A stretch of DNA of 63,982 nt, the filler included, from Candidatus Hydrogenedentota bacterium (GTDB taxonomy: Bacteria > JBFMHD01), in assembly GCA_040752395.1 (NCBI GenBank). It is 10 parts of 10 records of this genome, joined end to end, with 100 filler letters (N's around TTAATTAATTAA, not from the genome) between each part and the next. Parts side by side here need not be neighbours in the genome. Positions count along the whole stretch, not along the records: positions 1 to 20,268 come from JBFMHD010000020.1; positions 20,369 to 25,481 come from JBFMHD010000200.1; positions 25,582 to 30,685 come from JBFMHD010000201.1; positions 30,786 to 35,889 come from JBFMHD010000202.1; positions 35,990 to 41,057 come from JBFMHD010000203.1; positions 41,158 to 46,181 come from JBFMHD010000204.1; positions 46,282 to 51,265 come from JBFMHD010000205.1; positions 51,366 to 56,340 come from JBFMHD010000206.1; 2 more parts are not named here. One strand, 5' to 3'. This document shows positions 1 to 61,775 of this stretch, one piece after another (position 1 is the stretch's first letter; each line of letters starts with the position of its first letter). The notes under the pieces are model-generated. The model did not search any database. It was not told the DNA's origin and was given only the letters and a program-made list of their open reading frames with translations. The translations under genes were made by a program, and so were the position numbers.

Positions 1-235
1 TAATTCGGGCTACAGGCTACGGGCTACGGACTACAGCCGGCTGGAGCCCGAAGCCCGGAGCCTGAAGCCAACATATCATCTTTAGTTTTTCATATATTGT
101 GTAGAGCGCAAACCGCGCTCATGGGTACTCCTCTGAAAAACTTTGTAACTATAATAATATCAAGTAGAAGCAAGAGGCAAGAGGCAAGAAGCAAGATAAC
201 GGAAGAAGTGAGAGGTATCAGGACAGGCTACAGTC
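1..235 (-). repeat. Two tandem copies of the RBS-ending modular repeat (first cut by window edge)
   Basis: 1-132 matches the 154-bp unit at 45336-45494; 128-235 carries CTCCTCTGAAAAACTTTGTAACTATAATAAT plus GCAAGAG heptamers. Confidence 0.9.
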
Positions 236-472
236 AGAATACTGCACTAACCCACCCCTAACTGACTGATTGCAAAGTTAAAAGTTAAAAGGGAAAACTA
301 AAGAATATTATATCATTTCCTTAAATATTACTCAACAATTTTTTTAAGCCACAGCACATAACAAGTGGTTGGGTTTACTTTTTATGGCTGGATTTATCCA
401 TCTAAAAGGATAGTACATCGCTACTTCCTAATTGACAAGATTAATAAGTTAGTATTTATTGAGGGTTGATAA

Positions 473-546
473 TGGGGTGTCGCCAAACTGGCAAGGCACC
501 GGCCTTTGGAGCCGGTATTATGGAGGTTCGACTCCTCCCACCCCAG
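473..546 (+). tRNA. tRNA-Gln(TTG)
   Basis: Acceptor TGGGGTG/CACCCCA, anticodon arm CCGGC-CTTTGGA-GCCGG, T loop GGTTCGACTCC; CCA not encoded. Confidence 0.95.
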
Positions 547-558
547 CTGTTTACAATC

Positions 559-699
559 GGAGAGTCAGGATAGTAGCGAAGTAAAGAATGGCTGTCGGCC
601 CTGCCGACCGAACAGACATTTTGCGCAAAAGCGGATAGCGAGGAACAGCGAACAGGATGTGAGCGAAAGCAAAATGTCGCGCAGGAAGCGAGACGAGCA
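559..699 (+). repeat. tRNA-linked structured element, copy 1 (degenerate)
   Basis: Core GACATTTTGCGCAAAAGCGGATAGCGAGG...GCAAAATGTC nearly identical to 57918-57982 and to the minus-strand copy at 55743-55805. Confidence 0.85.
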
Positions 700-724
700 T
701 TAAAAGAGATCTGTAAAAAATACT

Positions 725-753
725 TTGACACTGTATTGGTTAATGAGTAAAAT
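725..753 (+). promoter_or_regulatory. Sigma70-type promoter for the MNT-HEPN pair
   Basis: TTGACA-17 bp-TAAAAT directly upstream of the ORF at 762. Confidence 0.65.
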
Positions 754-761
754 GAAAAAGG

Positions 762-1067
762 ATGAAATATATGAGTAAAGAAGAGATAATAGAAAAATTA
801 AAAGAATCTAAAATTCATCTTAAAGATAAATTTCATATAAAAAAAATAGCATTATTTGGTTCATGCTTAAGGAATAAAGATAGTGGTACAAGCGATATCG
901 ACCTGCTAATTGAACTAGATGAAAATATATCAAATGTCTATGAACTAAAAAAAGAGTTAAGGTTATATCTTACAGAGATATTTAAAATGGATGTTGACTT
1001 GGCTCGTGAAAAATACCTTAAAAATTATGTTAAAAATGATATATTAACTCAGGCAATATATGTTTAA
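762..1067 (+). CDS. Minimal nucleotidyltransferase (MNT) antitoxin
   Basis: LFGS...SDIDLLIE motif, ~100 aa, overlaps the HEPN gene. Confidence 0.9.
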   Translation: MKYMSKEEIIEKLKESKIHLKDKFHIKKIALFGSCLRNKDSGTSDIDLLIELDENISNVYELKKELRLYLTEIFKMDVDLAREKYLKNYVKNDILTQAIYV

Positions 1068-1407
1068 AAAAGACAGGGGAAATATACTTGGCATCATTGA
1101 AGCAATTGATAAAATAACAAAATATACTGCTAATATATCAAAAGGTGAGGAACTATTTGCAAATTCTCTTATCTTTGATGCTGTATTAATGAATTTTATT
1201 GTAATAGGTGAAATGATAGACAGGATTTCAGAAGAATTTAAAAGTAATTATCCTGAGATAAAGTGGAAAGAAATAAAAAATTTTAGAAATATTATTGCTC
1301 ACGACTATTTCGGTATAGATGCTGATGAGGTTTTTGATATTATAATTAATTATATCCCCAATTTTAAAAAGGATATCTTAAAAATATTAAGCAATATTTT
1401 AGAGTAG
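1060..1407 (+). CDS. HEPN/DUF86 (HepT-like) RNase toxin
   Basis: RNIIAHDY = Rx4HxY motif; IGE and PEIKW typical of DUF86. Confidence 0.9.
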   Translation: MFKKDRGNILGIIEAIDKITKYTANISKGEELFANSLIFDAVLMNFIVIGEMIDRISEEFKSNYPEIKWKEIKNFRNIIAHDYFGIDADEVFDIIINYIPNFKKDILKILSNILE

Positions 1408-1427
1408 CAATACTGGTTCAATCTAAA

Positions 1428-2345
1428 TTAACCAGAGAGCCTTACTTTAGTGAATAAAATGTTACAAACTGATCCTTTAATATAAATCTCAGTATCGACA
1501 CCTATGGGTATGATAATACGATTTTGTCTGTGACCAAAATAGGGAAAATTGATTATAGGGAAACCAGTATCTTTAAAGAGGTCTAACAAGGTCTGGTTTA
1601 CAGAGAGTGCGCCTCTGTTTTTAAAAGACGGTTTACATCCTTTAAAATCTATAAATAAACATTTTGTTTTGCTAAATACACCTGCGTTTTTTAAGTGCGT
1701 AAGCATACGGTCTATCCTGTACGGCTCTTCGTTCCAATCCTCGATAAACATTATGTTATCTGTTTCGTATTGTTTAAAAAATTTTGTTCCTGCTGATGCA
1801 GATATCAAAGATAAACACCCGGCTATTGATTTACCATTAAGTTCTGTTAATCCTGTGCCTCTCTTTATAATTTTAGCAGGCAGACAATAATGTAACTCTT
1901 TTTCAGATAAGATGGTTTTTAACAATTCTATCTGTCGTTTATATACTTTTTGATAAAAATCAGATATCAGCATATATCCATAAAATGTTGGTATTTTTGA
2001 TATCTGATTTATAGCTAAAAGTATAGCTGTAAAATCGCTATACCCTATAAACTTAATTTTATTTTTTTTTATCTTTTTATAATCGATATCATCAAGTAAC
2101 CGTGCTGACCCATAGCCGCCTTTTATTGCCATTACTAAATCAGGCTGTTTGTTAATAATATAATTTACATCTTTTATTCTCTCATAAGTTATGCCTGCGA
2201 ATAAACCATAACATTTAAAAATATTTTTCGGTATAATAATCTTCGCCTCTGGTAGATATTTTTGTAGATTTGTTTTAGCGGTATAAAATTTCTTTTTGGG
2301 AAAAGAATCCGCAGGTGCAATTAAACCGATTTTAATTTTTTTCAA
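1428..2345 (-). CDS. ldcA: LD-carboxypeptidase, peptidase S66 family
   Basis: KGGYGS, IGYSDFT, FIEDWNEEPYRIDRML and FGH motifs. Confidence 0.85.
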   Translation of the reverse strand: MKKIKIGLIAPADSFPKKKFYTAKTNLQKYLPEAKIIIPKNIFKCYGLFAGITYERIKDVNYIINKQPDLVMAIKGGYGSARLLDDIDYKKIKKNKIKFIGYSDFTAILLAINQISKIPTFYGYMLISDFYQKVYKRQIELLKTILSEKELHYCLPAKIIKRGTGLTELNGKSIAGCLSLISASAGTKFFKQYETDNIMFIEDWNEEPYRIDRMLTHLKNAGVFSKTKCLFIDFKGCKPSFKNRGALSVNQTLLDLFKDTGFPIINFPYFGHRQNRIIIPIGVDTEIYIKGSVCNILFTKVRLSG

Positions 2346-2348
2346 TTC

Positions 2349-2984
2349 TTACTCCTTTTGATTAATTCTTCTTACAGTGGCAACAATTTCTTCAAGCGAC
2401 TCATAAGGTGTTGGTGTATCATCAACACCGCCGTATATAGGGCTCAAGATAAGTGTTCTGTGTAATTCATTTTCTTTTGAGAGCCTGACTATATAAACAG
2501 GCCCAAATGGAGCGGTATCAAACTCGGTGGTCCATTCTTGTGGATAAAACTCACTATGTTCAAGGAAATAGAGTTCGTAAGCCTTAAGTTCATTATTATT
2601 CTGTATTTCTTTTACTTGTATAACTTCGCTGCAATATCTGCAGCCATCGGGTCCATCAGCCTGTCTCATATTTCTACATTTTTCATAAGCGAATTCTTCA
2701 AATGAATAACCTTCATAGAGCTCGCTAAACCCTTCTGTTGATTCATATTCAATATACCATTCGATGTTTTTACCGGCGATGGTTGGAGAGGGTATTGTCC
2801 CACGTATTTCAAAAGTGTCCGGGTAATCAAAAGCAAATCCAGAAGCTGTATCTTGATAAGTTCGCAATCCTTGTTTTGTTTCTTCTTTGTTTAACTGATT
2901 TTTATCAGAACTTTTGCTACAACTAAAAAGAGTTATCAAAATACAGATAATAATCAGATCAAAATAAGGGCTATCTTTTATCAT
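2349..2984 (-). CDS. Hypothetical lipoprotein
   Basis: Hydrophobic N-terminus with LFSC lipobox-like motif; packed in operon. Confidence 0.6.
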   Translation of the reverse strand: MIKDSPYFDLIIICILITLFSCSKSSDKNQLNKEETKQGLRTYQDTASGFAFDYPDTFEIRGTIPSPTIAGKNIEWYIEYESTEGFSELYEGYSFEEFAYEKCRNMRQADGPDGCRYCSEVIQVKEIQNNNELKAYELYFLEHSEFYPQEWTTEFDTAPFGPVYIVRLSKENELHRTLILSPIYGGVDDTPTPYESLEEIVATVRRINQKE

Positions 2985-3712: not shown

Positions 3713-3720
3713 ACAATTGA

Positions 3721-3885
3721 CTCCTCTTCTGAAAAACTTCGCAACTATAATAATATCAAGTAGAAGCAAGAGACAAGAGGCAAGAAGCAAGATAACGCAA
3801 AAACGCAAAAACGCAAGAACGCAATAACCCAATAACGCAATAGTGTAGAGCGTAAAATCGCTCATGACGACTCATATGAAAGACT
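3721..3885 (-). repeat. RBS-ending modular repeat
   Basis: ATGAGCG...CTCTACAC start, TTGCGTT octamers, TCTTGCT heptamers, ends TTTTTCAGAAGAGGAG before the SDR start. Confidence 0.9.
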
Positions 3886-3894
3886 TTGTTAGCT

Positions 3895-5202: not shown

Positions 5203-5253
5203 TAATTTAACCCTCGAATTATTACTCTCAGAGTGTAAGTGAAACAAGTATTT

Positions 5254-6789: not shown

Positions 6790-6854
6790 AAAAAATCACC
6801 TCATAACTTAACTCTAATACTTATCAGATAATTTTACGAATTTATAAAAAATTG

Positions 6855-8891: not shown

Positions 8892-9290
8892 CTCCCTTGA
8901 AAAACTTCGCAACTATAATAATATCAAGTAGAAGCAAGATAACGGAAAAGAAAGATAACGAAAGAAGCAAGAGGCAAGAAGCAAGATAACGGAAGAAGTG
9001 AGAAGTATCAGGACAGGCTACAGGCTACGGACTACAGCCGTCTGGAGCCCGAAGCCTGAAGCCTGCTGAAAAGTCTTGAGTCTTGAGTCTTGAGTCTTGA
9101 GTCTCGAGTCCTGTTTTGACTCACGACTCTTTTCATATCATCTTTAGTTTTTCATCCTTTGTGTAGAGCGCAAACGCGCTCATCTTGACTCCTTCGAAAA
9201 AGTTCGGAGCTCGGAGCTATTATTACGAACTCCTAACTCCTATCTTTTCCATACTTTGTGTAGAACCCAAAAGCGCAATAACCCAATAGT
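8892..9290 (-). repeat. Long composite copy of the RBS-ending modular repeat
   Basis: Contains nearly all module types; ends TTTTTCAAGGGAG 5 nt before accA ATG. Confidence 0.9.
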
Positions 9291-9917: not shown

Positions 9918-10140
9918 GCCACCAGTTAAAAGTAAGAAGTGAGAGGTGAGAAGTATCAGAAAAAAGAAGCAAGCACCGTGCACCAATTGTCAGAAAACAA
10001 TAGTTATCTAATAAGCAATTGGTAATGGATAAAACGTGCAAAAGAATTAAAAAGCACTAAAGTTTTTTACTAAAGGGTCGATAATATTAATGAAAGCCAT
10101 AACACCTGAAAACCTTGAGGTTCTCTTAAGGTCTCATAAT

Positions 10141-17320: not shown

Positions 17321-17488
17321 CTCCTCTGAAAAACGTTGTAACTCTAATAATTCGGGGTACAGGCTACAGGCTACGGACTACCAGCCGGCTGGAGCTAAAA
17401 GCCAAAAGCCTGCTGAAAAGTCTTGAGTCACGAGTCCTGTTTTGACTCACGACTCTTTTCATATCATCTTTAGTTTTTCATACGTTGT
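17321..17488 (-). repeat. RBS-ending modular repeat
   Basis: Ends TTTTTCAGAGGAG 7 nt before the GTG start of the methyltransferase. Confidence 0.9.
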
Positions 17489-20368: not shown

Positions 20369-20493
20369 AATATATGAAAAACTAAAGATGATATGTTGGC
20401 TTCAGGCTCCGGGCTTCGGGTTCCAGCCGGCTGTAGTCCGTAGCCCGTAGCCTGTAGCCCGAATTATTAGAGTTACAGCGTTTTTCAGAGGAG
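20369..20493 (+). repeat. RBS-ending modular repeat (154-bp unit type, cut by contig edge)
   Basis: ATGAAAAACTAAAGATGATATG...CAGCCGGCTG...GAATTATTAGAGTTACAGCGTTTTTCAGAGGAG just before ATG 20504. Confidence 0.92.
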
Positions 20494-21933: not shown

Positions 21934-22323
21934 ATGAAAAAAAAAGAGAAGGTCGATTATTGGGTAAAATTAGCCGAAAATGATTGGACGGTTGCTCGTC
22001 ATCTCTTTGAAAAGGAAGACTACCCATATGCTTTATTTTTTGGACACATGACAATTGAAAAAATATTAAAAGCGATATTTGTTAATAAATTCAATGAAGC
22101 ACCGCCCCAGACTCATAGGTTAATTTACTTGGCAGAAAAGACAGGTTTAGAATTACAACCAGAAAGATTAGAATTATTTGAGATTATTACTGATTTTAAT
22201 ATTGAAGCAAGATACCCTGACGAAAAATTTTTGTTCTATAAAAAGTGTACAAAGGAATTTACCCGGCAATATATTGAAAAGATGGAGGAATTAAAGAGAT
22301 GGCTGATGAAACAGATTCAATAA
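21934..22323 (+). CDS. HEPN domain protein
   Basis: ALFFGH..IEK.LKA, THRL, EARYPD. Confidence 0.88.
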   Translation: MKKKEKVDYWVKLAENDWTVARHLFEKEDYPYALFFGHMTIEKILKAIFVNKFNEAPPQTHRLIYLAEKTGLELQPERLELFEIITDFNIEARYPDEKFLFYKKCTKEFTRQYIEKMEELKRWLMKQIQ

Positions 22324-22616
22324 TAGAGATAATAAAAAGATATATTGATGAACTAAATAAAAATAATATAAAAATTGAAAAAGCAATAATATTTGGATCT
22401 TATGTTAAAGGAAATATAAAAGAGGAAAGTGATATCGATGTAGCTCTGATTTCATCTACATTTACAGGAGACAGATTTGAAGACAGGAGACTGATTGTCC
22501 CATTCAGAAGAAAGATAGATAGCAGAATCGAACCCATTCCATTTAAACCTGAGGAATTCTATAATGGTGGAATTCTTAGCGATGAAATAAGAAAGACCGG
22601 GAAAATAATTTTTTAA
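22299..22616 (+). CDS. Minimal nucleotidyltransferase
   Basis: IIFGSYVKG...SDIDVALIS; overlaps the HEPN gene. Confidence 0.88.
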   Translation: MADETDSIIEIIKRYIDELNKNNIKIEKAIIFGSYVKGNIKEESDIDVALISSTFTGDRFEDRRLIVPFRRKIDSRIEPIPFKPEEFYNGGILSDEIRKTGKIIF

Positions 22617-24117: not shown

Positions 24118-24262
24118 CTCCTCTGAAAAACATTCTAACTCTAATAATATCAAGTAGAAGCAAGAGACAAGAGGCAAGAAGCAAGATAACGCAATAACGC
24201 AATAACCCAAGAACCCAAGAACACAATAGTGTAAAGCGCAAAAAGCGTTCATTACAAATCCT
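24118..24262 (-). repeat. RBS-ending modular repeat
   Basis: Ends TTTTTCAGAGGAG 7 nt before the amidohydrolase ATG; octamer and heptamer arrays as at 3721-3885. Confidence 0.9.
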
Positions 24263-30785: not shown

Positions 30786-31033
30786 TGGGTTCTTGGGTTA
30801 TTGCGTTATTGCGTTCTAAATTCTGGCTGTTGACTACAGATTTCAGCATTTTGCATTCTGATTTTTTTAAACGATGTTGGCTTTCGGCTCCGGGCTTCGG
30901 GCTCCAGCCGGCTGTAGTCCGTAGCCTGTAGCCTGTCCTGATACCTCTCACTTCTTCCGTTATCTTGCTTCTTGCCTCTTGCTTCTTTCGTTATCTTTCT
31001 TTCCGTTATCTTGCTTCTTGCCTCTTGCTTCTA
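30786..31033 (+). repeat. Modular repeat copy lacking the GGAG terminus
   Basis: Octamer array, CAGCCGGCTG hairpin and TCTTGCT arrays running up to the hemC ATG. Confidence 0.88.
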
Positions 31034-31035
31034 AT

Positions 31036-37320: not shown

Positions 37321-37326
37321 GATCAA

Positions 37327-37477
37327 GAGATGATATGAAATCAGTCTAAAAGTCAAAGAATCGTGAGTCGTGAGTTAGCAGCCTTTAGTCGTCAGTCTTT
37401 AGTCATTAGTCTTTGACTTATGACTGGCAACTTATTGACTGATTTTACGACTTGAGACTTAAGACTGTTTATAGGAG
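37327..37477 (+). repeat. Divergent copy of the RBS-ending repeat
   Basis: Starts GAGATGATATG, inverted AGTC/GACT heptamer arrays, ends TTTATAGGAG 6 nt before ATG. Confidence 0.7.
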
Positions 37478-37483: not shown

Positions 37484-39664
37484 ATGAGAACCAAATTTAT
37501 TAAATTGGTGATTTTATTGATTATTATCTCGCTCTGGATAATAGATTATATTAAAGCACAGCCTTTGCCAGTTACTATTGAAGCAGGTGAGATAGTATTT
37601 CGGTATCAGGATGCGTTTGCTGATAAGGTTACTATAGCAGGTAATTTTAATAACTGGAACCCTGACCAATATAAATTACGCAAAGAAAAAGATGATATAT
37701 TTGTAATAAAACTTAAACTTGATGTAGGGATGTATGAATATAAATATATAATAGATGGTAACTGGATGAGTGGTGATAATATTAAACTCAAGGTGATACG
37801 AAATGAGAGAGGGGAGTTAGAGGTAAAAGAAAAAACAGCTCAATATAATATACTCTCGAATACAAAAGTTTATGTTAATGGTGGCTATTTTTTCAAAGGT
37901 GGAACAAAATTTGAAGACAAAAGTAATAATAATCGTTATTCCTGGCGGATTACAAAACCTGATAATGAGATGGACCTTAATATAGAACTCTCAATTAATC
38001 AGAATGTTTCAGTCTTTGCTAATCTGAACGCAAATTATACTGAGAGAGGGGATGCTCAATTTCGGATGGATGAAGCAAGTATGAGAGGGGAGCTCGGACC
38101 TGTATCTATAACTGGTTTTTTAAATCAGCGATTAGTTGATATTGATGACCCGCTTCGAATAATCGATTATTCTTACAGACTTTATACAGAGGATGATGCG
38201 TGGACCGAACACTGGCATTATATCCGTGCCGAAGACCCGTTCAGATATTATGGCAGTATCTCTAATTTAGCCACAAGAGAGATGTTTCTTATTGGTGAAC
38301 AAAGAACAGAAGATTGTTTATATGGTAAAGGTTTACAGGGCGGTATTTTACAATTCGAGCCCTGGGGGTTTAATAACACCTTCTTCTTTCTTGATTCTAT
38401 AAGGTCTGACAGAGTCTTTTTCGGGTATCGTGGTAAAAAATCCTGGGATATGTTTTATATCGGTGGTCTTTTCTATACTGATAGAATTGAAGACGGGTTA
38501 TGGGGAAATCTTGATTTTGGAGGCGACAGGTATGTAACTGTTGCTGAAAACGGGATGAATTATTCTAATGCTGGTGGTGCTGATAGATGGTGGAGATTGG
38601 ATTCACCTAATCTATGGGTACATAACTTCGATAATGTTATTATTCTTGATGCTGATGGCAGAAACCAGAACAGGCTCGCAGGCATTGATGCAGGTCTCCT
38701 GTTTGATTATGTCAAACTTTATTTTGAATACATAAATGAGCATCGGGAATCAGCCTATGTAGCGAGTCTCGATGGTGTAAATGACGCGTTCAATAATGCA
38801 ACTGAGTATTCAAGATATTTTTATGGTAGAAACGATGGCACCTATACAAGGGCTTTTGGGGCACAGGAATTTGGTGGTGACCATCGTGGCAATATCTTTC
38901 TTGTTGGGTGTAGATTTGATATTATAAAAAGTTTTGATGCTGATTTATTCGTATATTTTCACGATAGAGAATCAGTGCTTCTGCCTCTTTATGGCGATAC
39001 AGACACTCTTTTAAGAGTCTCACCGCAGAGAGACACTATAACTGGCAGATTAAGATATAAAGGCAAGCGATTTAATGCAGGGTTAGAATTATCATATACA
39101 AGAATCGATGATTATCCAGTGGTCACATTTGAGAACATTTATGATGAATACGGGTTTTACGGTCTCGAAATACTTGGTGCTAAAAAACGTAATACAGCCA
39201 CGCTTCTTATGAACTGGAAACCTATCGATAGAATAGATATCTTCTTTGGGGATAGATATAAAAACTTCAGATACTATGACAAGAAAGCTGATGTTAATTT
39301 TACTGATTTTGTATTCAAGTTTAAATGGACCAAAAGATTATATAATGATGCAGGGATCCGGTTAGTAAATTATGATGTTAATACAGTTGACCACACTTAT
39401 ACTTTCCCCCATCTTGGTATAGGATACCAATTTTTGAAGAATGTAAATTTAAGATTATACTACGGAATAGATTATCTATTTGATGATGATAAACTTGAGG
39501 GTGGTAGATATGATTTGTGGAGTAAATACGGTTATGGCGCTGAACGAGCCGTATACTCATATAACCCTAATATCGACCCTAATGTTAATGATTTATTCCA
39601 TGCTGAAGATTTACTGAAAAAAGAGAAACGAGTTGTTCTTGAAGCAAAAGTTATATTCGAATGA
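37484..39664 (+). CDS. CBM48 domain fused to putative outer-membrane beta-barrel
   Basis: Signal peptide, KVTIAGNFNNW...YEYKYIIDGNW, then ~600 aa of amphipathic strand pattern. Confidence 0.7.
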   Translation: MRTKFIKLVILLIIISLWIIDYIKAQPLPVTIEAGEIVFRYQDAFADKVTIAGNFNNWNPDQYKLRKEKDDIFVIKLKLDVGMYEYKYIIDGNWMSGDNIKLKVIRNERGELEVKEKTAQYNILSNTKVYVNGGYFFKGGTKFEDKSNNNRYSWRITKPDNEMDLNIELSINQNVSVFANLNANYTERGDAQFRMDEASMRGELGPVSITGFLNQRLVDIDDPLRIIDYSYRLYTEDDAWTEHWHYIRAEDPFRYYGSISNLATREMFLIGEQRTEDCLYGKGLQGGILQFEPWGFNNTFFFLDSIRSDRVFFGYRGKKSWDMFYIGGLFYTDRIEDGLWGNLDFGGDRYVTVAENGMNYSNAGGADRWWRLDSPNLWVHNFDNVIILDADGRNQNRLAGIDAGLLFDYVKLYFEYINEHRESAYVASLDGVNDAFNNATEYSRYFYGRNDGTYTRAFGAQEFGGDHRGNIFLVGCRFDIIKSFDADLFVYFHDRESVLLPLYGDTDTLLRVSPQRDTITGRLRYKGKRFNAGLELSYTRIDDYPVVTFENIYDEYGFYGLEILGAKKRNTATLLMNWKPIDRIDIFFGDRYKNFRYYDKKADVNFTDFVFKFKWTKRLYNDAGIRLVNYDVNTVDHTYTFPHLGIGYQFLKNVNLRLYYGIDYLFDDDKLEGGRYDLWSKYGYGAERAVYSYNPNIDPNVNDLFHAEDLLKKEKRVVLEAKVIFE

Positions 39665-40677: not shown

Positions 40678-40695
40678 GAGGGTCACAAGACCCGT
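40678..40695. repeat. Short hairpin repeat; second copy inverted at 46125-46142
   Basis: GAGGGTCACAAGACCCGT and its exact reverse complement. Confidence 0.6.
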
Positions 40696-40724
40696 AGTAT
40701 AGCCGGCTTTACCCATCCATAGAG

Positions 40725-41057
40725 AGGCACAAAGGCACAAAATTAAATTCAAAATTAAAAATTAAAAATTAGAAAACAGGAGACAGGAGACAGAAGTTAG
40801 GAGTTGAAGAGTTGAAGAGTTAAAGAATGTATTGAGTTTTTGGGTTATTGGGTTCTTGCGTTCTTGGGTTATTGGGTTATTGGGTTTTTGCGCTCTACAC
40901 AAGGTATGAAAAACTAAAGATGATATGTTGGCTTCAGGCTCCGGGCTTTTGGCTCCAGCCGGCTGTAGTCCGTAGCCTGTAGCCTGTCCTGATACCTCTC
41001 ACTTCTTCCGTTATCTTGCTTCTTGCTTCTACTTGATATCATTAGAGTTACAATGTT
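40725..41057 (+). repeat. Composite modular repeat cut by contig end inside the terminal module
   Basis: 7-8-mer arrays, GCGCTCTACAC, AAAACTAAAGATGATATG, CAGCCGGCTG, ends ATTAGAGTTACAATGTT at the gap. Confidence 0.9.
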
Positions 41058-43250: not shown

Positions 43251-44444
43251 TTATACGAATTTTCCTACGGTTTCAGCTATTCTTGATACCCCTTTCTCAA
43301 TCTGCTCCATAGATAATGCATACGATAATCTAATAAAATTATCGTCACCAAACGGTTCCCCGGGAACAACAGCAGAAAGCGCATCAGTAAGAAAGACCTC
43401 AGCTATATCATACGAATTTTTTATTACTTTATCTTTATATCTTTTACCATATAAACGAGAAACATCCGGGAATACATAGAAAGCACCCTTCGGCATATTA
43501 CAGGAGATGCCATCAATAGAATTCAGCATCTCAACAATACGCTTCCTCCTTTTATCAAATGCTTCTCTCATTTTAATAACCTCATCTTCAGGAGCTGAAA
43601 AAGCAGCGAGCGATGCGTATTGAGTAATAGAATTAGGATTAGAGGTTGATTGGTCCTGGAGTTCTATAACTTTTTTCATTATTTCAAGCGGCCCGGCAGC
43701 ATACCCCATCCTCCATCCTGTCATTGAATGACTTTTAGATAGACCATTAACCGTAATAGTCAATCTTTTAATCTCTTCAGAAAAAGTCCCGATACTATAA
43801 TGTTTTTCGTTGTCATAAATAAGTTTTTCATAAACCTCATCTGAGATAACAACAATGTCGTTTTCACAAGCAACTTTTGCTACTATTTCAAGTGATGTTT
43901 TATTAAGAACAGCGCCTGTGGGATTACAGGGACTATTTAAAATTATGCCCCTTGTTTTAGGGGTTATTAGTTTTCTTAATTCTTTTTCTTCAATCTGAAA
44001 ATCATTTTCTGCACTTGTCCTGAGATATACAGGCGTAGCACCGGAAATCTCAACCTGCGCAGGATAAGTTACCCAATATGGCAGCGGGATAATAACTTCA
44101 TCACCATAATCAAATAGAACAAGTATTACATTAAAAAGCGAATGTTTGGCTCCGCAGGATACAACAACCTGTTCAGGTTTATATTCAAGCCCATTATCTT
44201 TTAATAATTTTTTACATATAGCTTGTTTTAGTTCCGGGATACCTGAAGAAGGTGTATATTTAGTTTTTCCTTCCTTTAATGCTTTATTAGCAGCTTCTTT
44301 AATAAACTCCGGGGTATCAAAATCAGGTTCACCCGCACCAAATCCTACGACATCTACGCCTCTGGCTTTTAGTTCTTTAGCTTTAGCTGTGATAGCAAGT
44401 GTTGCAGACGGCTTTAATACATCTGTTCTCTTTGAAAGCTTCAT
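43251..44444 (-). CDS. aspC: PLP-dependent aspartate aminotransferase, class I
   Basis: GEPDF, NSPCNPTG, SDEVY, SKSHSMTGWRMGY, GAFY. Confidence 0.9.
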   Translation of the reverse strand: MKLSKRTDVLKPSATLAITAKAKELKARGVDVVGFGAGEPDFDTPEFIKEAANKALKEGKTKYTPSSGIPELKQAICKKLLKDNGLEYKPEQVVVSCGAKHSLFNVILVLFDYGDEVIIPLPYWVTYPAQVEISGATPVYLRTSAENDFQIEEKELRKLITPKTRGIILNSPCNPTGAVLNKTSLEIVAKVACENDIVVISDEVYEKLIYDNEKHYSIGTFSEEIKRLTITVNGLSKSHSMTGWRMGYAAGPLEIMKKVIELQDQSTSNPNSITQYASLAAFSAPEDEVIKMREAFDKRRKRIVEMLNSIDGISCNMPKGAFYVFPDVSRLYGKRYKDKVIKNSYDIAEVFLTDALSAVVPGEPFGDDNFIRLSYALSMEQIEKGVSRIAETVGKFV

Positions 44445-44450
44445 TAGTAC

Positions 44451-44563
44451 CTCCTCTGAAAAACATTGTAACTATAATAATATCAAGTAGAAGCAAGAAA
44501 TAACGGCATCCTGTATCTTGCCTCTTGCTTCTTTCGTTATCTTGCTTCTACATATCATCTCCT
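44451..44563 (-). repeat. Compact RBS-ending repeat bounded by AGGAG direct repeats
   Basis: AGGAG at 44559-44563 and 44451-44455; internal TAGAAGCAAGA/TCTTGCTTCTA inverted repeat. Confidence 0.9.
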
Positions 44564-44575
44564 ATAATGATTTAT

Positions 44576-44752
44576 CTACATTTTTTTATTATCTTCTTTT
44601 TCTGTTTGGTTTTTATCTTCTTTTAAGCCCTTTTTAAACTCAGTAATACTTCGGCCAATCTGGCGCATAAGATCAGGTATGCGTTTAGCGCCAAATAATA
44701 ATATAACAATCACTATAATCAGTAAAACTTCATCAAAACGAATATTACCCAT
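44576..44752 (-). CDS. tatA: TatA/TatE family subunit (58 aa, below ORF-track cutoff)
   Basis: My translation MGNIRFDEVLLIIVIVILLFGAKRIPDLMRQIGRSITEFKKG; GGAG RBS. Confidence 0.9.
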   Translation of the reverse strand: MGNIRFDEVLLIIVIVILLFGAKRIPDLMRQIGRSITEFKKGLKEDKNQTEKEDNKKM

Positions 44753-44948
44753 AATTCTCCGAGTCCTTCTTTATTTCTTCTTCAAATTCAGAAGCCTCAA
44801 TCTCGTCCTGAAACTCGCGTGCACCTCGTTGAAATTCTTTTAATCCTTTGCCTAAGGAACGTGCCAATTCAGGTAATTTTTTAGGGCCTATAAATATAAG
44901 CGCTACAATAAATATGACAATAATCTCTCCAAAATTAAGGTTAAACAT
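44745..44948 (-). CDS. TatA/TatB family subunit
   Basis: GEIIVIFIVALIFIGPKKLPELARSLGK. Confidence 0.9.
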   Translation of the reverse strand: MFNLNFGEIIVIFIVALIFIGPKKLPELARSLGKGLKEFQRGAREFQDEIEASEFEEEIKKDSENYG

Positions 44949-45330
44949 TTTCTTCTTCCTCTCTGGAAGAATAAAATCTTATATATGTCTGTAGATTCAA
45001 TTCATCCAAGTCAGAAATCTGTATAAATCTCACAGCTATAAAATAATCTTTAGTAGGGTCTTTTCTGCTTTTTTCGACCCTTAATATTTTGCAGGTAATA
45101 TCTGAAAACTCTACACCTTCTATCTGAAACATAACTTTAAATGCATCTCTCATAAGCATCTGCAAAGTAGCACAATTCAAGACAGGGTCGCTTGACCGAA
45201 GCCCCATACCATGAACACTCAAGCCAACAGCAACCCCTTCAAAACTGAATTGTTCCTGATGAACGGCAGTCAACCTGACAAGAACTTCCCTTTTTAATCG
45301 TTCAGCTGATCTTATACCGGGCTCTTCCAT
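44941..45330 (-). CDS. PilZ-like domain protein
   Basis: RSAER (RxxxR), LSVHG, C-terminal ILRVE...AVRF. Confidence 0.7.
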   Translation of the reverse strand: MEEPGIRSAERLKREVLVRLTAVHQEQFSFEGVAVGLSVHGMGLRSSDPVLNCATLQMLMRDAFKVMFQIEGVEFSDITCKILRVEKSRKDPTKDYFIAVRFIQISDLDELNLQTYIRFYSSREEEENV

Positions 45331-45335
45331 TGTAT

Positions 45336-45528
45336 CTCCTCTGAAAAACGCTGTAACTCTAATAATTCGGGCTACAGACTACGGGCTACGGACTACAGCC
45401 GGCTGGAGCCTGAAGCCCGGAGCCTGAAGCCAACATATCATCTTTAGTTTTTCATATATTGTGTAGAGCGCAAACCGCGCTCATGACGACTCCTATGAAA
45501 AAAAGCAAGAGATGAAGAAGCAAGACTT
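45336..45528 (-). repeat. 154-bp unit of the RBS-ending repeat plus an upstream module
   Basis: AGGAG at 45490-45494 and 45336-45340; near-identical to 59278-59436 and 1-132. Confidence 0.92.
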
Positions 45529-45601
45529 GTCTAATAGAATCTTCTATAGCATAAATTGTCAAGATTTATTTTGACATAGTTAATAGTTAATGGATTAAAT
45601 A

Positions 45602-46072
45602 TTGTATATGAAAGCAGAGATATTTATTCTTTGTATTGGAAAATGTAAAAAATCTGAATATAATCCTGTTATTGAGATGTATCTAAACAGGATAAACAGA
45701 TTCATAAAAATAACTCAGTTTGAAATCCCTGCTATGAATTATAAAGATATTAATCAGACTATAAAAAAAGAATCTGAGATGCTTATTGAAAAATCGAAAG
45801 ATATGTTCAGAATACTTTTAGATAGTAACGGCAAAAAAATTGATACCGAATCTTTTGTAAGAATACTTAATAAAATATTTTTTACAGGGTCGAAACGGGT
45901 CTGTTTTATTATTGGCGGGCCATACGGGGTCTCTGATTATTTAAAAAGTCTTGTGGATTTAACTATATCTTTATCCTGTTTAAATCTCCCATATCTTCTC
46001 GCAAGAACTATTCTATTTGAACAAATCTACAGGTCTTTAACAATTATTAAAAACGTACCGTACCAGCATTAG
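45602..46072 (+). CDS. rlmH: 23S rRNA pseudouridine-1915 N3-methyltransferase
   Basis: IGK, FIIGGPYG, ISLS, L.EQIYR..TI....PY. Confidence 0.9.
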   Translation: MYMKAEIFILCIGKCKKSEYNPVIEMYLNRINRFIKITQFEIPAMNYKDINQTIKKESEMLIEKSKDMFRILLDSNGKKIDTESFVRILNKIFFTGSKRVCFIIGGPYGVSDYLKSLVDLTISLSCLNLPYLLARTILFEQIYRSLTIIKNVPYQH

Positions 46073-48460: not shown

Positions 48461-48503
48461 CTCCTCTGAAAAACATTTAGAAGCAAGATGCAAGAAGCAA
48501 GAC
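48461..48503 (-). repeat. Short copy of the RBS-ending repeat overlapping the upstream stop codon
   Basis: TCTTGCT heptamers then ATGTTTTTCAGAGGAGG. Confidence 0.8.
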
Positions 48504-50528: not shown

Positions 50529-50564
50529 CTCCTCTGAAAAACATTGTAACTCTAATAATTCGGG
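50529..50564 (-). repeat. Minimal 36-bp terminal module of the RBS-ending repeat
   Basis: CCCGAATTATTAGAGTTACAATGTTTTTCAGAGGAG between a stop codon and a 6-nt spacer plus ATG. Confidence 0.88.
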
Positions 50565-55639: not shown

Positions 55640-55830
55640 TCGGCGAAAAAATCCTGTTCAATTCCCTATTAGTTCCACTGGTAGCGCATAGGGGAATTGA
55701 CCTTCCGCTCATCTCGCTTCACGCTCGTCTCGCTCCAGGCACGGCATTTTGCTTCCGCTCACATCCTGTTCGCTCATCCTCGCTATCCGCTCGGCGCAAA
55801 ATGCCCGTTCAATTCCTAATCAGTTACAAA
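55640..55830 (-). repeat. tRNA-linked structured element downstream of tRNA-Glu (one full unit plus start of a second)
   Basis: 22-bp tRNA 3' end repeated at 55679-55700; antisense T-arm at 55807-55816 and 55656-55666; shared core. Confidence 0.88.
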
Positions 55831-55905
55831 TGGTAGCGCATAGGGGAATTGAACCCCTGTTTGCGGATTGAGAGCCCGCTGTCCTAACCGTTAGACGAAT
55901 GCGCC
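55831..55905 (-). tRNA. tRNA-Glu(CTC)
   Basis: GGCGCAT/ATGCGCT acceptor plus ACCA, anticodon loop CTCTCAA, T loop GGTTCAATTCC. Confidence 0.93.
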
Positions 55906-56065: not shown

Positions 56066-56579
56066 CAAGTTAAAAGTAAAGAAAGCGAAAATATACACTT
56101 CCTTGCCGTATCTTTCAATCTTTGTGCCTTTGCCTGCCTGCCGCGGCAAAGTGCGGCGCAGGCAGGTGCCTCTGTGCCTTTGAAAGTAAGAAGTAAGAAG
56201 TATCAGAAAATGCAGGATGCAAAAATAATCTTTGAACATCTGAACTCTTTTTATGGCCAGTTGAGGTAATCCGCGGATAGGATTTTTTTATATATTTCTA
56301 TTTTGTCTTTAATAAATGAGGTATCGATATTTAAATAATTNNNNNNNNNNNNNNNNNNNNNNNNNNNNNNNNNNNNNNNNNNNNTTAATTAATTAANNNN
56401 NNNNNNNNNNNNNNNNNNNNNNNNNNNNNNNNNNNNNNNNTTACGGTCTGTTTGTTTGTTTCGCACGCTATACGTGCTTTGTCAGGTGGCTTCAACTTTA
56501 CAGATTACTCCATAAGTTGCACCTCAAACTAAATCGTTTACAGACTTTTACGATTACTGACACCTTGCAGTCAGTTAGA

Positions 56580-56591: not shown

Positions 56592-56641
56592 TATCTTGGC
56601 ACGCTTCAATCTTTCAAAATTCTTCTTATCTTTTTCATACT

Positions 56642-56989: not shown

Positions 56990-56995
56990 AAATTT

Positions 56996-57685: not shown

Positions 57686-57814
57686 AAGTTTAACTCCAGA
57701 TACATCACTCTATGACTAAAATATAAAGGTATTTATCTTAAAAGGTCAAGAAAAAAGATTTGACAAAGTCGGGTTATTAAATTATTGGGGTTTTAATTCA
57801 TTTGAATTTTTTAT

Positions 57815-57888
57815 GCGCCTGTGGCTCAGTTGGATAGAGCAACGGATTTCTAATCCGTAGGTCGGGGGTTCGAATCCCTCCAGGCGCG
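57815..57888 (+). tRNA. tRNA-Arg(TCT)
   Basis: GCGCCTG/CAGGCGC acceptor, ACGGA-TTTCTAA-TCCGT anticodon arm, GGTTCGAATCC. Confidence 0.95.
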
Positions 57889-58042
57889 CATTGATAACAA
57901 CGTCAGGGATTCGAACAGACATTTTGCGCAAAAGCGGATAGCGAGGATGAGCGAACAGGAAGTGAGCGGAAGCAAAATGTCGTGCCTGAAGCGAAACGAG
58001 CGTGATGCGAGTTGATCGGAAGTTCGAATCCCTCCAGGCGCG
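57889..58042 (+). repeat. tRNA-linked structured element downstream of tRNA-Arg
   Basis: 21-bp tRNA 3' end repeated at 58022-58042; antisense T-arm AGGGATTCGAAC at 57905-57916; shared core. Confidence 0.9.
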
Positions 58043-58045
58043 TAC

Positions 58046-58147
58046 AAGTTAAAGAGTTCAGGTGTTCAGGAGTTCAAGAGTTAGAGTATTTAAAGATTCG
58101 TAACTCTTCAACTCCTGAACTCATCAACTCTTGAACTCTTCAAACTT
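58046..58147. repeat. Inverted octamer array (long imperfect hairpin)
   Basis: (GAGTTCAR)n followed by (YTGAACTC)n. Confidence 0.8.
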
Positions 58148-58153
58148 TTTTAT

Positions 58154-58228
58154 GGTGGATGTAGCTCAATCGGCTAGAGTACTGGACTGTGGCTCCAGTC
58201 GCTGCGGGTTCAAATCCCGTCATCCACC
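58154..58228 (+). tRNA. tRNA-His(GTG)
   Basis: G-1 plus GTGGATG/CATCCAC acceptor with C discriminator; CTGGA-CTGTGGC-TCCAG anticodon arm. Confidence 0.95.
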
Positions 58229-58234
58229 CTGATC

Positions 58235-59257: not shown

Positions 59258-59277
59258 AAAGTTATCCTTATAAAAAA

Positions 59278-59436
59278 CTCCTTCGAAAAACGCTGTAACT
59301 CTAATAATTCGGGGTACAGGCTACGGGCTACGGACTACAGCCGGCTGAAGCCCGAAGCCCGGAGCCTGAAGCCAACATATCATCTTTAGTTTTTTATACC
59401 TTGTGTAGAGCGCAAACCGCGCTCATGACTACTCCT
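59278..59436 (-). repeat. 154-bp unit of the RBS-ending repeat
   Basis: AGGAGT direct repeats at 59431-59436 and 59277-59282; near-identical to 45336-45494. Confidence 0.92.
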
Positions 59437-61297
59437 CCGAGTGCTCAAATATTCTATCCAATAAAGACGATTGAAAAGGTACGAATTCAACCATATCCTT
59501 ACCTCCTTTGAAAGTCACGTATTGATATTCCTGCTTTGATACAATGAAGGGTAACTTATTGATTTCCATATGTGCCCCTATATGTATTTTATCCATCGCA
59601 CTTATGCTTGCATCTTTTTCTTTGCCGATTTTCTCTTTAGATTGATATATTAAATTATGTAAATCTTTTTCTCTTTTTTTCAGTTCAATAAGCGATTTAT
59701 TAATTTCATCATATTCACGTTCAAACGTTTTATCCCATCGACTACTATTTTTTAGTTTCTCAAGTCTTGATAATCCTTCTTCCAATTTTTTAATCAAATC
59801 TATTGTTTCAATAAACTTTAATTGATAATTCTGAAGTTCATCAAAAAAAGATGGGTCTATACCTACAGCGATCTTTGTATGTGGTGAACCGGCTGCACCT
59901 ATCTCTTTTGAAATAACATGTTTCGCAGCGCGTATTACACCACCAATAATCTGACCCCGTTTCCCTGGTAGAACAACACTATATCCACTATCAATATGCG
60001 AATGAAAACACAACTCTGTTATAACAATATTCCTCTTAGCTGTAAGAATTGCCTGTTCAACAAATTTTGCAAAAATATCTCTCTCTGCTTGAACCACACC
60101 TTTTTCTTTACCTATTATACCGCCTATCACTTTCACATCTTGTCCTGCTTTCACAAAAGAGTTCCCTATATTTTTCTTTACTATTACATCACCTTTTGCT
60201 GTGACTCTAAAATTATCTTCTATATTTCCATTAACGATAACCGTACCTATAAAATCTATGTTACCCGTAGAATAATTCACATCCCCTTTTATGGTTAACA
60301 ATTCTTCAATTTCTATCTTTCCATTTTTAATAATCGGTTGGCCATCTTTATCTGCAATAAATTTATTAGTATTTTTATCAAAGACAATGCCATCGCCATG
60401 CTTTATTGGTATCTCTATCCCGTCTTTTGCAGGGAGCATTCGGCCATCAATTTTTTTCCCCGGGATACCTTTTTGTGCACTTATTTTTTCTGCAACAGGG
60501 TCTCCTTTTTTCACCACCTCGATAAGATTCATTTCCCGTAAATCGATTCTCCCAAATTTGTCCTGTCTAAATTTAGGTAATGTTTTATCGGACTCAAACC
60601 TTAACTCGATTTTTGCATTCACACCATTAATCGGCAGCGTTCCCTCTGCAATAAGTGTTCTTGTATTATAAACCTTCTCTTTTAATAAATCATCTATAAC
60701 ATCTTCTTTTATACCAAAAATTACACCTTCTCTGTGTAAAGTATTTATTATATCAACTTTTGTTAAATCTTTGCCAGCGCCCTCAGGCGGGATGACTGTT
60801 ATATAAGCCTGCATATGATCAGCTGATAACTCTATTTTAGCATAAGAATCAGCATCAGGTATAATCTTTCTTTTCCCCACCAGAACAGGTCTTTCAAGAT
60901 TAAATAATACAGCTTTTGATACCGCATCATTATCGACCTCTTCTACTTCTATCCCTTTCAGATAATGCAATATCGCCTGAGCATTTACTTCTTTGCCCAT
61001 GCCTTTTGCAGGATATACTGTCGCATAAATATTAACGCCTTCAAATTTTATATCAAAATATCCATCAAGATTCCTTGCTGTCTCTAAAGCTTTTGACACC
61101 CCTCGTAAATCATGAAGTTCTATCTCTTTCTCATATACAAGGATCTTCCAGCTCTTTTTAAAAAAGCCGAGAAACCCGTTTCTCCCACGTTCTATTATTT
61201 TATAATCAAGATATCTTGAGGCTATACCAAATTTTTCAGCCCCTTTTTTTAATGCCTCTTTTATGCTCTCTGCTTCAATTACTATTTCGCTACCCAA
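59429..61297 (-). CDS. FapA/DUF342 family protein with N-terminal Jag-like domain
   Basis: IEAESIKEAL...GFLG (Jag_N-like); GDVNYSTGNIDFIGTV, IIGG repeats. Confidence 0.85.
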   Translation of the reverse strand: MGSEIVIEAESIKEALKKGAEKFGIASRYLDYKIIERGRNGFLGFFKKSWKILVYEKEIELHDLRGVSKALETARNLDGYFDIKFEGVNIYATVYPAKGMGKEVNAQAILHYLKGIEVEEVDNDAVSKAVLFNLERPVLVGKRKIIPDADSYAKIELSADHMQAYITVIPPEGAGKDLTKVDIINTLHREGVIFGIKEDVIDDLLKEKVYNTRTLIAEGTLPINGVNAKIELRFESDKTLPKFRQDKFGRIDLREMNLIEVVKKGDPVAEKISAQKGIPGKKIDGRMLPAKDGIEIPIKHGDGIVFDKNTNKFIADKDGQPIIKNGKIEIEELLTIKGDVNYSTGNIDFIGTVIVNGNIEDNFRVTAKGDVIVKKNIGNSFVKAGQDVKVIGGIIGKEKGVVQAERDIFAKFVEQAILTAKRNIVITELCFHSHIDSGYSVVLPGKRGQIIGGVIRAAKHVISKEIGAAGSPHTKIAVGIDPSFFDELQNYQLKFIETIDLIKKLEEGLSRLEKLKNSSRWDKTFEREYDEINKSLIELKKREKDLHNLIYQSKEKIGKEKDASISAMDKIHIGAHMEINKLPFIVSKQEYQYVTFKGGKDMVEFVPFQSSLLDRIFEHSEE

Positions 61298-61308
61298 TTG
61301 GATAAATC

Positions 61309-61402
61309 CTCCTCTGAAAAACGCTGTAACTCTAATAATTCGGGGTACAGGCTACAGGCTACGGACTACAGCCGGCTGGAGCCAAAAGCCAAAAGCCTGC
61401 TG
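61309..61402 (-). repeat. RBS-ending modular repeat cut by contig end
   Basis: Ends TTTTTCAGAGGAGG before the TTG start of the FapA gene. Confidence 0.9.
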
Positions 61403-61502
61403 NNNNNNNNNNNNNNNNNNNNNNNNNNNNNNNNNNNNNNNNNNNNTTAATTAATTAANNNNNNNNNNNNNNNNNNNNNNNNNNNNNNNNNNNNNNNNNN
61501 NN

Positions 61503-61598
61503 TATCTCACCTGTATTTACATCAATTACAAGTTTAGCATTTTTGTTATTCTCTTTTATTATTACTGCCCTATTTTTATCTCTTTTGATAATCTCCAT
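61503..61598 (-). CDS. Start of a hypothetical protein, truncated by contig end
   Basis: MEIIKRDKNRAVIIKENNKNAKLVIDVNTGEI preceded by AGGAG. Confidence 0.55.
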
Positions 61599-61605
61599 AG
61601 ATAGT

Positions 61606-61775
61606 CTCCTATGAAAAGTCTTGAGTCTCGAGTCCTGTTTTGACTCACGACTTGCGACTTGTGACTCTTTTCATATCATCTTTAGTTTTTCATACTTTGT
61701 GTAGAGCGCAAGAACGCAAAAACGCAATAACCCAATTATCTTGCATCTTGCATCTTTTGTTATCTTGCTTCTAAT
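61606..61775 (-). repeat. RBS-ending modular repeat, TTTTCATAGGAG terminus
   Basis: Octamers, GCGCTCTACAC, AAAACTAAAGATGATATG, GAGTC/GACTC hairpin, ends 7 nt before ATG 61598. Confidence 0.88.

Follow-up and report, generated by a model that had tools for sequence, protein, structure and literature searches.

A modular repeat family that ends in the Shine-Dalgarno sequence of downstream genes in an uncultured bacterium

Repeats that carry a ribosome-binding site (RBS) to the gene behind them are known from a few cases. As described in passages of the review by Delihas (2011), the REP2 repeats of Neisseria are 120-150 bp long, have two internal stem-loops and no terminal inverted repeats, and carry a promoter, an RBS and an ATG immediately upstream of open reading frames (ORFs); there are about 26 copies per genome, and 14 co-regulated genes are preceded by one. 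The IR-A and IR-B repeats of Borrelia plasmids are described there as similar, with promoter, RBS and ATG directly before ORFs, and how such repeats arise and proliferate is raised as a question (PMC3184786). Mycobacterial interspersed repetitive units (MIRUs), according to sections of a 2025 review, appear to insert at start codons and have an internal ORF coupled at -4 nt (PMC12548453). Here we describe a family of non-coding, modular repeats in 63,982 nt of DNA (the window) from a Candidatus Hydrogenedentota bacterium, whose copies usually end in the Shine-Dalgarno (SD) sequence of the next gene. The original prediction for this DNA held that no known repeat ends in the RBS, a claim that does not survive the descriptions of REP2, IR-A/IR-B and the MIRUs.

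Tandem heptamers in intergenic DNA are found as the STRR repeats of cyanobacteria. Heptamer repeats of the sequence TAACTGA lie mostly a few nucleotides upstream of start codons in the account of MacGregor (2015), where a section heading states that canonical RBSs are rare next to them (PMC4679880). Pneumococcal repeats (BOX, RUP and SPRITE) are described, in passages of PMC3049150, as over-represented between convergent genes. A 2024 review on MITEs, the miniature inverted-repeat transposable elements, never mentions the terms RBS, Shine or ribosome-binding.

The window consists of ten contigs joined by N44-TTAATTAATTAA-N44 linkers, one of 20,268 nt, eight of about 5 kb each and a last one cut by the window end, and has a GC content of 28-37%. 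All copy counts refer to these ~63 kb of the genome and not to the whole genome. Among 5.8 billion proteins, none exceeds 64% identity to the accA protein of the window, for which the best named matches are metagenome-assembled genomes of Omnitrophota (60-63% identity); since all accA relatives lie at or below 64%, we take the organism to be uncultured and deeply branching. A literature search, supplements not covered, found no paper on intergenic repeats in Omnitrophota.

Position and orientation of the repeats

The usual end of a copy is a 31-nt terminal module (T1), ATTATTAKAGTT-N5-GTTTTTCAGAGGAG, the last bases of which are the GGAG(G) SD sequence of the next gene. A search for TTTTTCRRAGGAG with at most one mismatch gave 15 matches in the window, compared with a mean of 0.87 (largest 4) in shuffled sequences, and none of 100 shuffles reached 15; the full 31-mer with up to three mismatches gave nine matches and none in shuffles. 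Ten of the 15 have their end 5-11 nt ahead of a start codon, in ten genes that are unrelated and supported by Pfam: SDR (11 nt; 8 nt from its GAGGAG), accA (5), methyltransferase (7), CBM48 (10), amidohydrolase (7), aspC (6), PilZ (5), GH (9), beta-galactosidase (6) and FapA (11). These start codons are consistent with the positions of the Pfam domains. Another match lies 20 nt before a cNMP-binding gene (59257) that keeps its own AAGGA, so that GGAG is 5-11 nt from the start in 10/11 gene-proximal copies. Three matches are internal, with a ATGAGCGC module exactly 5 nt after each, and the last, at 37889 with one mismatch, is in the interior of a gene and is probably a chance match. T1 serves 10/56 listed protein genes, or 12 if a second type of SD-end (T2, described below) is counted at 37477 and 61551, the latter serving a partial ORF outside the list of 56. 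All 12 T1-served genes have a GGAG-type SD, compared with 6/12 of the other genes with a recognisable SD (Fisher p = 0.014), so that GGAG either belongs to the element or is a required target.

The orientation of the copies is strict. At each of the 15 loci where a gene or tRNA is visible downstream, the copy is sense to it (2 x 0.5^15 = 6e-5, in counts that are not fully independent since the copies are related). Two opposite copies within one 5-kb contig, at 20481 (+) and 24118 (-), are each sense to their own gene; the polarity thus follows the gene and not the replication fork. In divergent spacers (accA/9384, PilZ/SPOUT, and contig start/tRNA-Gln) the copies belong to one side and abut the gene on that side, which argues that they are 5' elements and not 3' tails.

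Beside 16 clear loci, the family includes a fragment (9934-9963) that lies in a convergent spacer, a diverged copy (37321-37477) and a relic (6799-6820). Clear copies occupy 16 of the 38 listed non-coding stretches of at least 30 nt, and with 2,897 nt in total the family takes up 4.6% of the window, or 34% of its non-coding DNA. Copies at unrelated loci are 89-100% identical across 92-138 nt, as measured against a contig from outside the window (L007) that was used as reference (Table 1). Diagnostic variants are shared within two subfamilies, one having GGCTTCA/GGCTCCG arms with GTAGCCCGA and the other GGCTTTT arms with GTACCCCGA, and gains and losses of modules are common to subsets of copies, such as the same extra block that the copies at accA and hemC carry. 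This is a real and polar family, amplified or homogenised recently. Much of the original prediction holds at this level: about 17 intergenic loci with common modules, all sense to the downstream gene or tRNA, and a terminus 5-11 nt before ten named starts, each of which is matched by the motif. Random orientation, which the prediction had named as an outcome that would speak against it, is not what is found within the window. The four contig ends that it placed inside copies (20369, 30786, 41057 and 61402) do lie there, as does position 1.

Modular anatomy, junctions and RNA folding

In the direction of the downstream gene, every copy draws its modules, in order, from one fixed series. The first is an array of octamers, (TATTGCGT)n, ending in GCGCTCTACAC, or alternatively a short GC hairpin, ATGAGCGCGGTTTGCGCTCTACAC, that starts with ATGAGCGC. 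It is followed by an AT-rich pad, ATGAAAAACTAAAGATGATATG, in which each of the three frames has stops, and by an optional GAGTC/GACTC hairpin, GAGTCGTGAGTC...GACTCGTGACTC, with (GACTCAA)n. The fourth module, (GGCTYYR)n-CAGCCGGCTG-(GTAGYCY)n, consists of mirror heptamer arrays that form a long bulged hairpin: the arrays pair in 6-bp blocks with single unpaired bases between them, and array variants are matched across the stem (CAGGCT/AGCCTG, CGGGCT/AGCCCG). The fifth has two forms, CCCGA and a linker (TCCTGATACCTCTCAC...) that leads into (CTTGCYT)n and CTACTTGAT, and the sixth is T1, in which variation is limited to a pentamer between two invariant blocks. A second, rarer SD-end, the T2 type TTT(T)CATAGGAG, is found in two gene-proximal (61551 and, diverged, 37470) and five internal positions. 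The size of a copy ranges from 36 nt, T1 alone (50529-50564), to about 290 nt (8892-9183). Copies are mosaic, with short direct repeats (TTTTCAG, CTGA, GGAG) at module junctions. The only inverted pair that might recall terminal repeats is TGAAAAAC/GTTTTTCA, 8-9 nt long, which lies between pad and T1, is non-terminal, and was found in both copies tested. The marks of a MITE are absent from the copies, in which neither terminal inverted repeats nor duplication beyond GGAG were found.

A 10-codon ORF from ATGAGCGC was considered as a coding reading of the unit and rejected, because its frame is interrupted in the accA copy and continues further in other copies. None of the frames through the units is conserved: 7-nt arrays shift the frame and one copy has a 1-nt deletion.

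Further tandem arrays of 7-8 nt, unrelated to those of the family, occur at 40725-40826, 58045-58143, 63849-63975 and 9204-9242. They are built from ACAGGAG, GAGTTGAA, GAGTTCAG/AACTCTTC, AGGAGTT/AACTCCT and AAAGATTA, often as mirror pairs capable of forming hairpins, and the genome seems generally prone to building 7-8-nt arrays in spacers.

Table 1. Copies of the repeat family in the window. The last column gives the interval aligned to contig L007, the identity and the aligned length.
Position	Strand	Feature	Ends and remarks	Alignment to L007
1..122	-	proximal unit: hairpin ATGAGCGC..., AT-rich pad, mirror heptamer hairpin, start of T1	cut by contig end	111-1; 100%; 111 nt
128..233	-	distal stacked unit: linker, CTTGCYT array, T1	next unit 5 nt after its GGAG	
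3724..3873	-	unit before SDR (start 3712): degenerate hairpin, TATTGCGT octamer array, CTTGCYT array, T1		
6799..6820	-	decayed T1-like relic (GTATTAGAGTTAAG...GAGG) before LeuA-like gene	read by eye	
8892..9183	-	longest unit, all modules, before accA (start 8886)		
9189..9290	-	distal stacked unit ending TTTTTCGAAGGAG	next unit 5 nt later	
9934..9963	-	linker-type fragment in convergent spacer	only piece not before a gene	
17321..17483	-	unit before methyltransferase (start 17313)		17412-17321; 89.1%; 92 nt
20369..20493	+	unit before CBM48 protein gene (start 20504)	begins at contig end	20369-20494; 99.2%; 126 nt
24118..24255	-	unit before amidohydrolase (start 24110): degenerate hairpin, octamer array, CTTGCYT array, T1		
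30786..31035	+	unit without T1: CTTGCYT array to 5 nt before hemC ATG (31036)	no SD	
37321..37477	+	diverged relative ending GTTTATAGGAG, before second CBM48 gene (start 37484)	ends 6 nt before the gene	
40678..41057	+	long unit	cut within T1 by contig end	
44451..44565	-	unit between tatA and aspC (start 44444): inverted and direct CTTGCYT arrays, T1	5' side abuts TATAGGAG	
45336..45484	-	complete proximal unit before PilZ (start 45330)		45473-45336; 98.6%; 138 nt
45490..45530	-	degenerate distal unit (CTTGCTT-like, TTTTTCATAGGAG)	next unit 5 nt later	
48461..48502	-	short unit before GH gene (start 48451): CTTGCYT array, shortened T1		
50529..50564	-	minimal copy, T1 alone (36 nt), before beta-galactosidase (start 50522)	fills the whole spacer from the upstream stop codon	
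55933..56123	-	unit without T1, upstream of and sense to tRNA-Glu (55831-55905)		
59278..59431	-	complete unit	directly behind GGAGGAG in last FapA codons	59415-59278; 94.9%; 138 nt
61309..61402	-	unit before FapA (TTG start 61297)	cut by contig end	61399-61308; 92.4%; 92 nt
61551..61776	-	unit with second SD-end type TTTTCATAGGAG	7 nt before ORF running off contig	

The 3' junction always lies in the SD: the shared sequence ends at GGAG, and the spacer and start codon differ at each locus. This agrees with the predicted stop of similarity right after GGAG, with the qualification that the next base is G in 6/12 gene-proximal copies (p = 0.012 at 18% G). The 5' boundary, where it is readable, also abuts GGAG. 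Four units of the ATGAGCGC type begin 5 nt behind GGAG (122, 9183, 45484 and 59426), two degenerate units of this type begin behind TGAG/AGGA (3865 and 24255), and two ATGATATG-type units stand directly behind GGAG, at 0 nt (44560 and 56100). Head-to-tail stacking behind the GGAG of an earlier unit is seen at 1-233, 8892-9290 and 45336-45530. Stop codons of upstream genes lie in or at the element in the case of beta-galactosidase, FapA (59424-59440) and the F5/8 gene; the last eight codons and the TAA stop of beta-galactosidase are encoded by the CTTGCYT array (48477-48503).

The copy at 59278 is the one case in which the flank is demonstrably not element DNA. The GGAGGAG upstream of it is the coding end of FapA, the TAG stop of FapA lies within the five junction bases, and the T1 end stands 20 nt before the next gene, which retains an AAGGA of its own. 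This copy fits joining behind GGAG better than selection for SD function.

On the RNA level, a complete unit is predicted to fold with -47.4 kcal/mol in the sense (z -2.4) and -37.6 kcal/mol in the antisense direction (z -0.7); in the predicted sense fold, GAAAAAC of the pad pairs with GUUUUUC of T1 and AGAGGAG is left free. In the hairpin region, the sense strand is the more stable by >2 kcal/mol in eight of nine distinct loci and within 0.3 kcal/mol in one (10 rows were compared, one locus being entered twice), an advantage that arises from G-U pairs on the sense strand. In copies of the octamer/CTTGCYT type, CCUCU of CTTGCCT is predicted to pair with AGAGG of the SD.

Scans with the sigma-70 consensus, in a host whose promoter type may differ, gave 112 sites in the window as compared with 99.6 in shuffled sequences. 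T1 was not picked out: none of the best 60 of these 112 sites lies in T1, and the single promoter match that overlaps a T1, at the PilZ locus, places the -10 at the start codon of PilZ. By the sigma-70 consensus, T1 has no support as a promoter; the lineage may use another type. A promoter-like TTGAGT-17-TGATATAAT at 335-307, upstream of the stack 1-233, fits a position of this stack in the 5' untranslated region. No intrinsic terminators were predicted on the element strand at two loci that were scanned separately. With Rfam, no family reached its gathering score on any element, and at E values up to 1 there were no matches at 44400-45650 and one chance microRNA match at 9012-9067. Judging from these fold and promoter predictions, the elements most likely lie within leaders and intercistronic RNA.

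At the PilZ locus the pad AUGAAAAAC (45448-45456 region) can pair with the upstream UUUUUCAUA of the older SD-end (45494-45502) or with the downstream GUUUUUCA of T1 (45342-45349). These alternative stems surround a 10-codon ORF whose stop overlaps the pad. The arrangement, seen in near-identical copies without covariation, suggests a possible leader-type switch.

Spread of the repeats and alternative explanations

We consider the chances about even that the copies form a lineage-specific family of non-coding, modular gene-start cassettes that spreads by duplicative insertion or joining, with junctions between the SD and the start codon. New copies would arise by duplicative insertion or ectopic joining in this interval: an incoming unit would join behind an existing GGAG and bring a new GGAG, and the target gene would keep a working RBS. 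GGAG is non-palindromic, and with a fixed polarity of insertion every copy would be sense to its gene. Outside the blocks of the family, GGAG occurs 26 times in non-coding DNA (both strands) and 170 times in coding DNA. Targeting of GGAG together with purifying selection, if insertions into coding DNA are lethal, would leave the surviving copies focused on SDs because other non-coding DNA has only these 26 GGAG. As to function, the element would be transcribed as part of a leader or intercistronic RNA in which the hairpins fold, and the AU/U-rich stretch and the SD would make up a standardised initiation region. We think that duplicative joining behind GGAG is the most likely way of spread, since this one rule would account for the strict polarity, the exact position at the SD, the presence of GGAG on either flank, the stacked units and the copy at FapA.

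Several observations weigh against this reading. The copies at hemC and tRNA-Glu lack T1, and a 30-nt fragment lies in a convergent spacer. At no readable junction was a target duplication found beyond GGAG. The five junction bases vary (TCGTC, TAGTC, TACCC, TCAAG) and the units behind them are 95-100% identical, which fits neither a simple cut-and-paste boundary nor pure recency; that junction bases and T1 pentamer vary and the conserved blocks do not suggests selection or homogenisation of these blocks. Distal SD-ends in stacks are not significantly more decayed than proximal ones (p = 0.1-0.5), and the idea that distal copies are older was dropped for this reason. For copies of the octamer/CTTGCYT type, the overall z-scores of the folds (-0.4 and +0.2) fall short of significance, and the relatedness of the copies, noted above for orientation, reduces the independence of the fold counts as well. 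Finally, no transposase, recombinase or reverse transcriptase was found by Pfam among 54 ORFs of the window and one of L007. These ORFs are housekeeping and carbohydrate genes and two HEPN/nucleotidyltransferase pairs, and no RAYT gene is among the 54 of the window. The original prediction had likewise seen no mobilising enzyme in the window. Its proposal of a non-autonomous element that inserts at GGAG and regenerates the RBS agrees with the GGAG on both sides, the head-to-tail stacking and the unit at the end of FapA; it lacks support from any duplication beyond GGAG.

The two HEPN/nucleotidyltransferase pairs, HepT-like and of toxin-antitoxin type, are at 762-1407 (+) and 21934-22616 (+). 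A group II intron D1-D4 RNA fragment (RF02003, 67.9 bits) lies at 56441-56569 (-), at the very start of a contig, and the remainder of the intron, including any reverse-transcriptase gene, is beyond the contig end.

A scan of genome contigs with the T1 pattern gave at least 17 stretches, 16 of which are chance single matches in unrelated taxa; the one true copy, and the sole outside copy among the matches listed, is in L007, a contig of 2.2 kb (1-2198) that starts inside a copy. The genome with which L007 is binned has no other copy; its accA is 58% identical to that of the window, and the region upstream of this accA is plain. No other match was found in 25 genomes of the phylum of that genome, where accA identity is at most 58%. 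L007 is probably a mis-binned contig of the organism of the window and, since it is 100% identical to the first 111 bases of the first window contig, may be the continuation of that contig. Metagenome contigs gave no matches with a hairpin probe or a T1 probe, viral contigs gave none, and plasmids and phages gave none by blastn. In L007, T1 ends 9 nt before a 23-codon ORF, which is followed by a GH39-like gene.

A stronger version, which we put forward tentatively as a possibility, is a mobile element with the SD itself as its integration site. It would join behind GGAG on the sense strand, bring a replacement GGAG and an AU-rich landing pad, colonise operons, stack, and supply roughly one in five of the genes seen with a start signal. 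A bolder form of this version is copying of leaders at the RNA level, primed or guided at the SD-anti-SD duplex, for which the SD-anchored 3' end and the variable 5' extent are the only support and against which no observation in the window speaks.

A serious rival, if an unlikely one, is a regulon of the REP2 or CREN kind, in which T1 is a cis-regulatory cassette (an operator, or a promoter with an RBS) kept by selection. One protein or RNA regulator would bind ATTATTAKAGTT...GTTTTTC or the heptamer arrays and thereby govern many unrelated genes, and spread would be rare and old. T1 varies only in the pentamer between its two invariant blocks, and the 5 nt ahead of ATGAGCGC are variable whereas SD, ATG and spacing stay constant, which is the pattern of a constrained site. 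The co-regulated genes behind REP2 (PMC3184786) are a precedent, as are, in passages of PMC4679880, the TAACTGA repeats that were proposed as binding sites of a post-transcriptional regulator. On the other hand, the genes served here have no common theme, identity of 89-100% spans whole units of 92-138 nt with hairpin arms and pads included, units are stacked, relics have decayed, and neither the sigma-70 scan nor the misplaced -10 at PilZ favours a promoter in T1. A regulatory role for T1 is compatible with joining behind GGAG.

HUH transposases of the IS200/IS605 type recognise subterminal hairpins and insert 3' of a fixed tetranucleotide, which would here be GGAG. The copies might be non-autonomous partners of such a single-strand transposase (IS200/IS605 TnpA or RAYT) encoded elsewhere, and they do have the tetranucleotide at the left flank and the right end, strict polarity, a hairpin that begins 7 nt behind the 5' GGAG, and only the 8-9-nt TGAAAAAC/GTTTTTCA pair in place of long terminal inverted repeats. 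We regard this as improbable: the 54 ORFs hold no such gene, the 5' hairpin with its flanking GGAG is found in 4-6 copies and absent from many, the last 35 nt at the 3' end hold no hairpin, and the opposite copies in one 5-kb contig disagree with a simple lagging-strand bias.

It is also quite improbable that no transposition took place at all and that native leaders were homogenised by gene conversion and by template switching among the heptamer arrays, which slippage would have built, the SD being the last shared microhomology. The mosaic copies with their modules present or absent, the short direct repeats at module junctions and the many unrelated 7-8-nt arrays of the window would be accommodated by such a process, but conversion needs homology on both sides, whereas the DNA 3' of GGAG is unique at every locus, and the arrival of the first copy at 12 or more unrelated genes is left unexplained. 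That repeats were wrongly joined to unrelated contigs in assembly or binning is hard to credit: five contig ends do fall within copies, and L007 is a 2.2-kb contig in a genome with a divergent accA and no other copy, but nine T1-bearing copies are contig-internal, with unique coding DNA on both sides and frames intact up to the junctions, and the copies differ from each other by a few bases.

Three tRNAs, tRNA-Gln, tRNA-Glu and tRNA-Arg, are each followed directly by a member of a second repeat family, at 609-700 (+), 55690-55800 (-) and 57905-58012 (+). The core of this family, of ~60-100 nt, is closed by CATTTTGC/GCAAAATG arms and, after tRNA-Arg and tRNA-Glu, is followed by a second copy of the tRNA 3' end (T-arm and acceptor). 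By its sequence the family resembles a small element that has integrated at the 3' end of the tRNA and duplicated an att-like segment. It has no Rfam match at E values up to 0.1.

Relation to known repeats

The cassettes that we think spread by joining behind GGAG have a readable stratigraphy of stacked units, subfamilies and relics, and a sharp junction in the SD; how a repeat lands exactly at translation starts would become a tractable question with a complete genome or population data. If an initiation region borne by one repeat is common to a fifth or more of the organism's genes, translation starts would be standardised by an element that is selfish or domesticated, which would bear on the evolution of gene expression and on gene calling in uncultured lineages. 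The cassettes would be a natural counterpart of the insulated RBS parts of synthetic biology.

The repeats described before share part of this design. BOX and the BIME/REP mosaics of enterobacteria are, like the family here, modular: the number of internal units varies, hairpins can form, and the repeats are co-transcribed with the genes next to them. As far as the passages on it go, BOX differs in being over-represented between convergent genes; the copies here are polar, lie 5' of genes and end in the SD. REP and BIME are placed mainly at 3' ends or in convergent spacers, and the convergent spacers of the window hold one fragment only. The TAACTGA and STRR repeats, in so far as they are described, have in common with the family that they are intergenic tandem heptamers, mostly near the starts of functionally unrelated genes. 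The TAACTGA heptamer is a different one, with no arrays in the window, and the arrays here are part of a larger mosaic with a 31-nt T1 and a canonical SD.

MIRUs come closer. In the sections that describe them they are, like the copies here, apparently mobile intergenic repeats, sense to their flanking genes and placed at starts with translation preserved, and the sense orientation in co-directional gene strings is seen in both. The difference is in how translation is kept, by an internal ORF coupled at -4 nt in MIRUs and by the terminal SD here; in the window, coupling at -4 nt is found only as chance cases at 3865 and 24255.

The closest described systems are REP2 and IR-A/IR-B, compared here by description and not by sequence, since the taxa are unrelated and homology is not expected. 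According to the passages on them, they share with the family that they are dispersed, non-coding repeats with internal stem-loops and without long terminal inverted repeats, which stand directly upstream of unrelated ORFs in a fixed orientation and bring the RBS along. As described, REP2 is a single unit that includes promoter and ATG, whereas the family here stops before the start codon, a promoter in it is unsupported, and it is a variable mosaic of 36 to ~290 nt with heptamer and octamer arrays, stacking and a far higher density. By analogy, the rare gene-start repeats of Neisseria and Borrelia may be seen as its relatives, which it far exceeds in density and modularity. The best-supported reading is that the principle of REP2, a repeat that brings a signal for the start of translation, is realised here as a dense, modular and stackable cassette.

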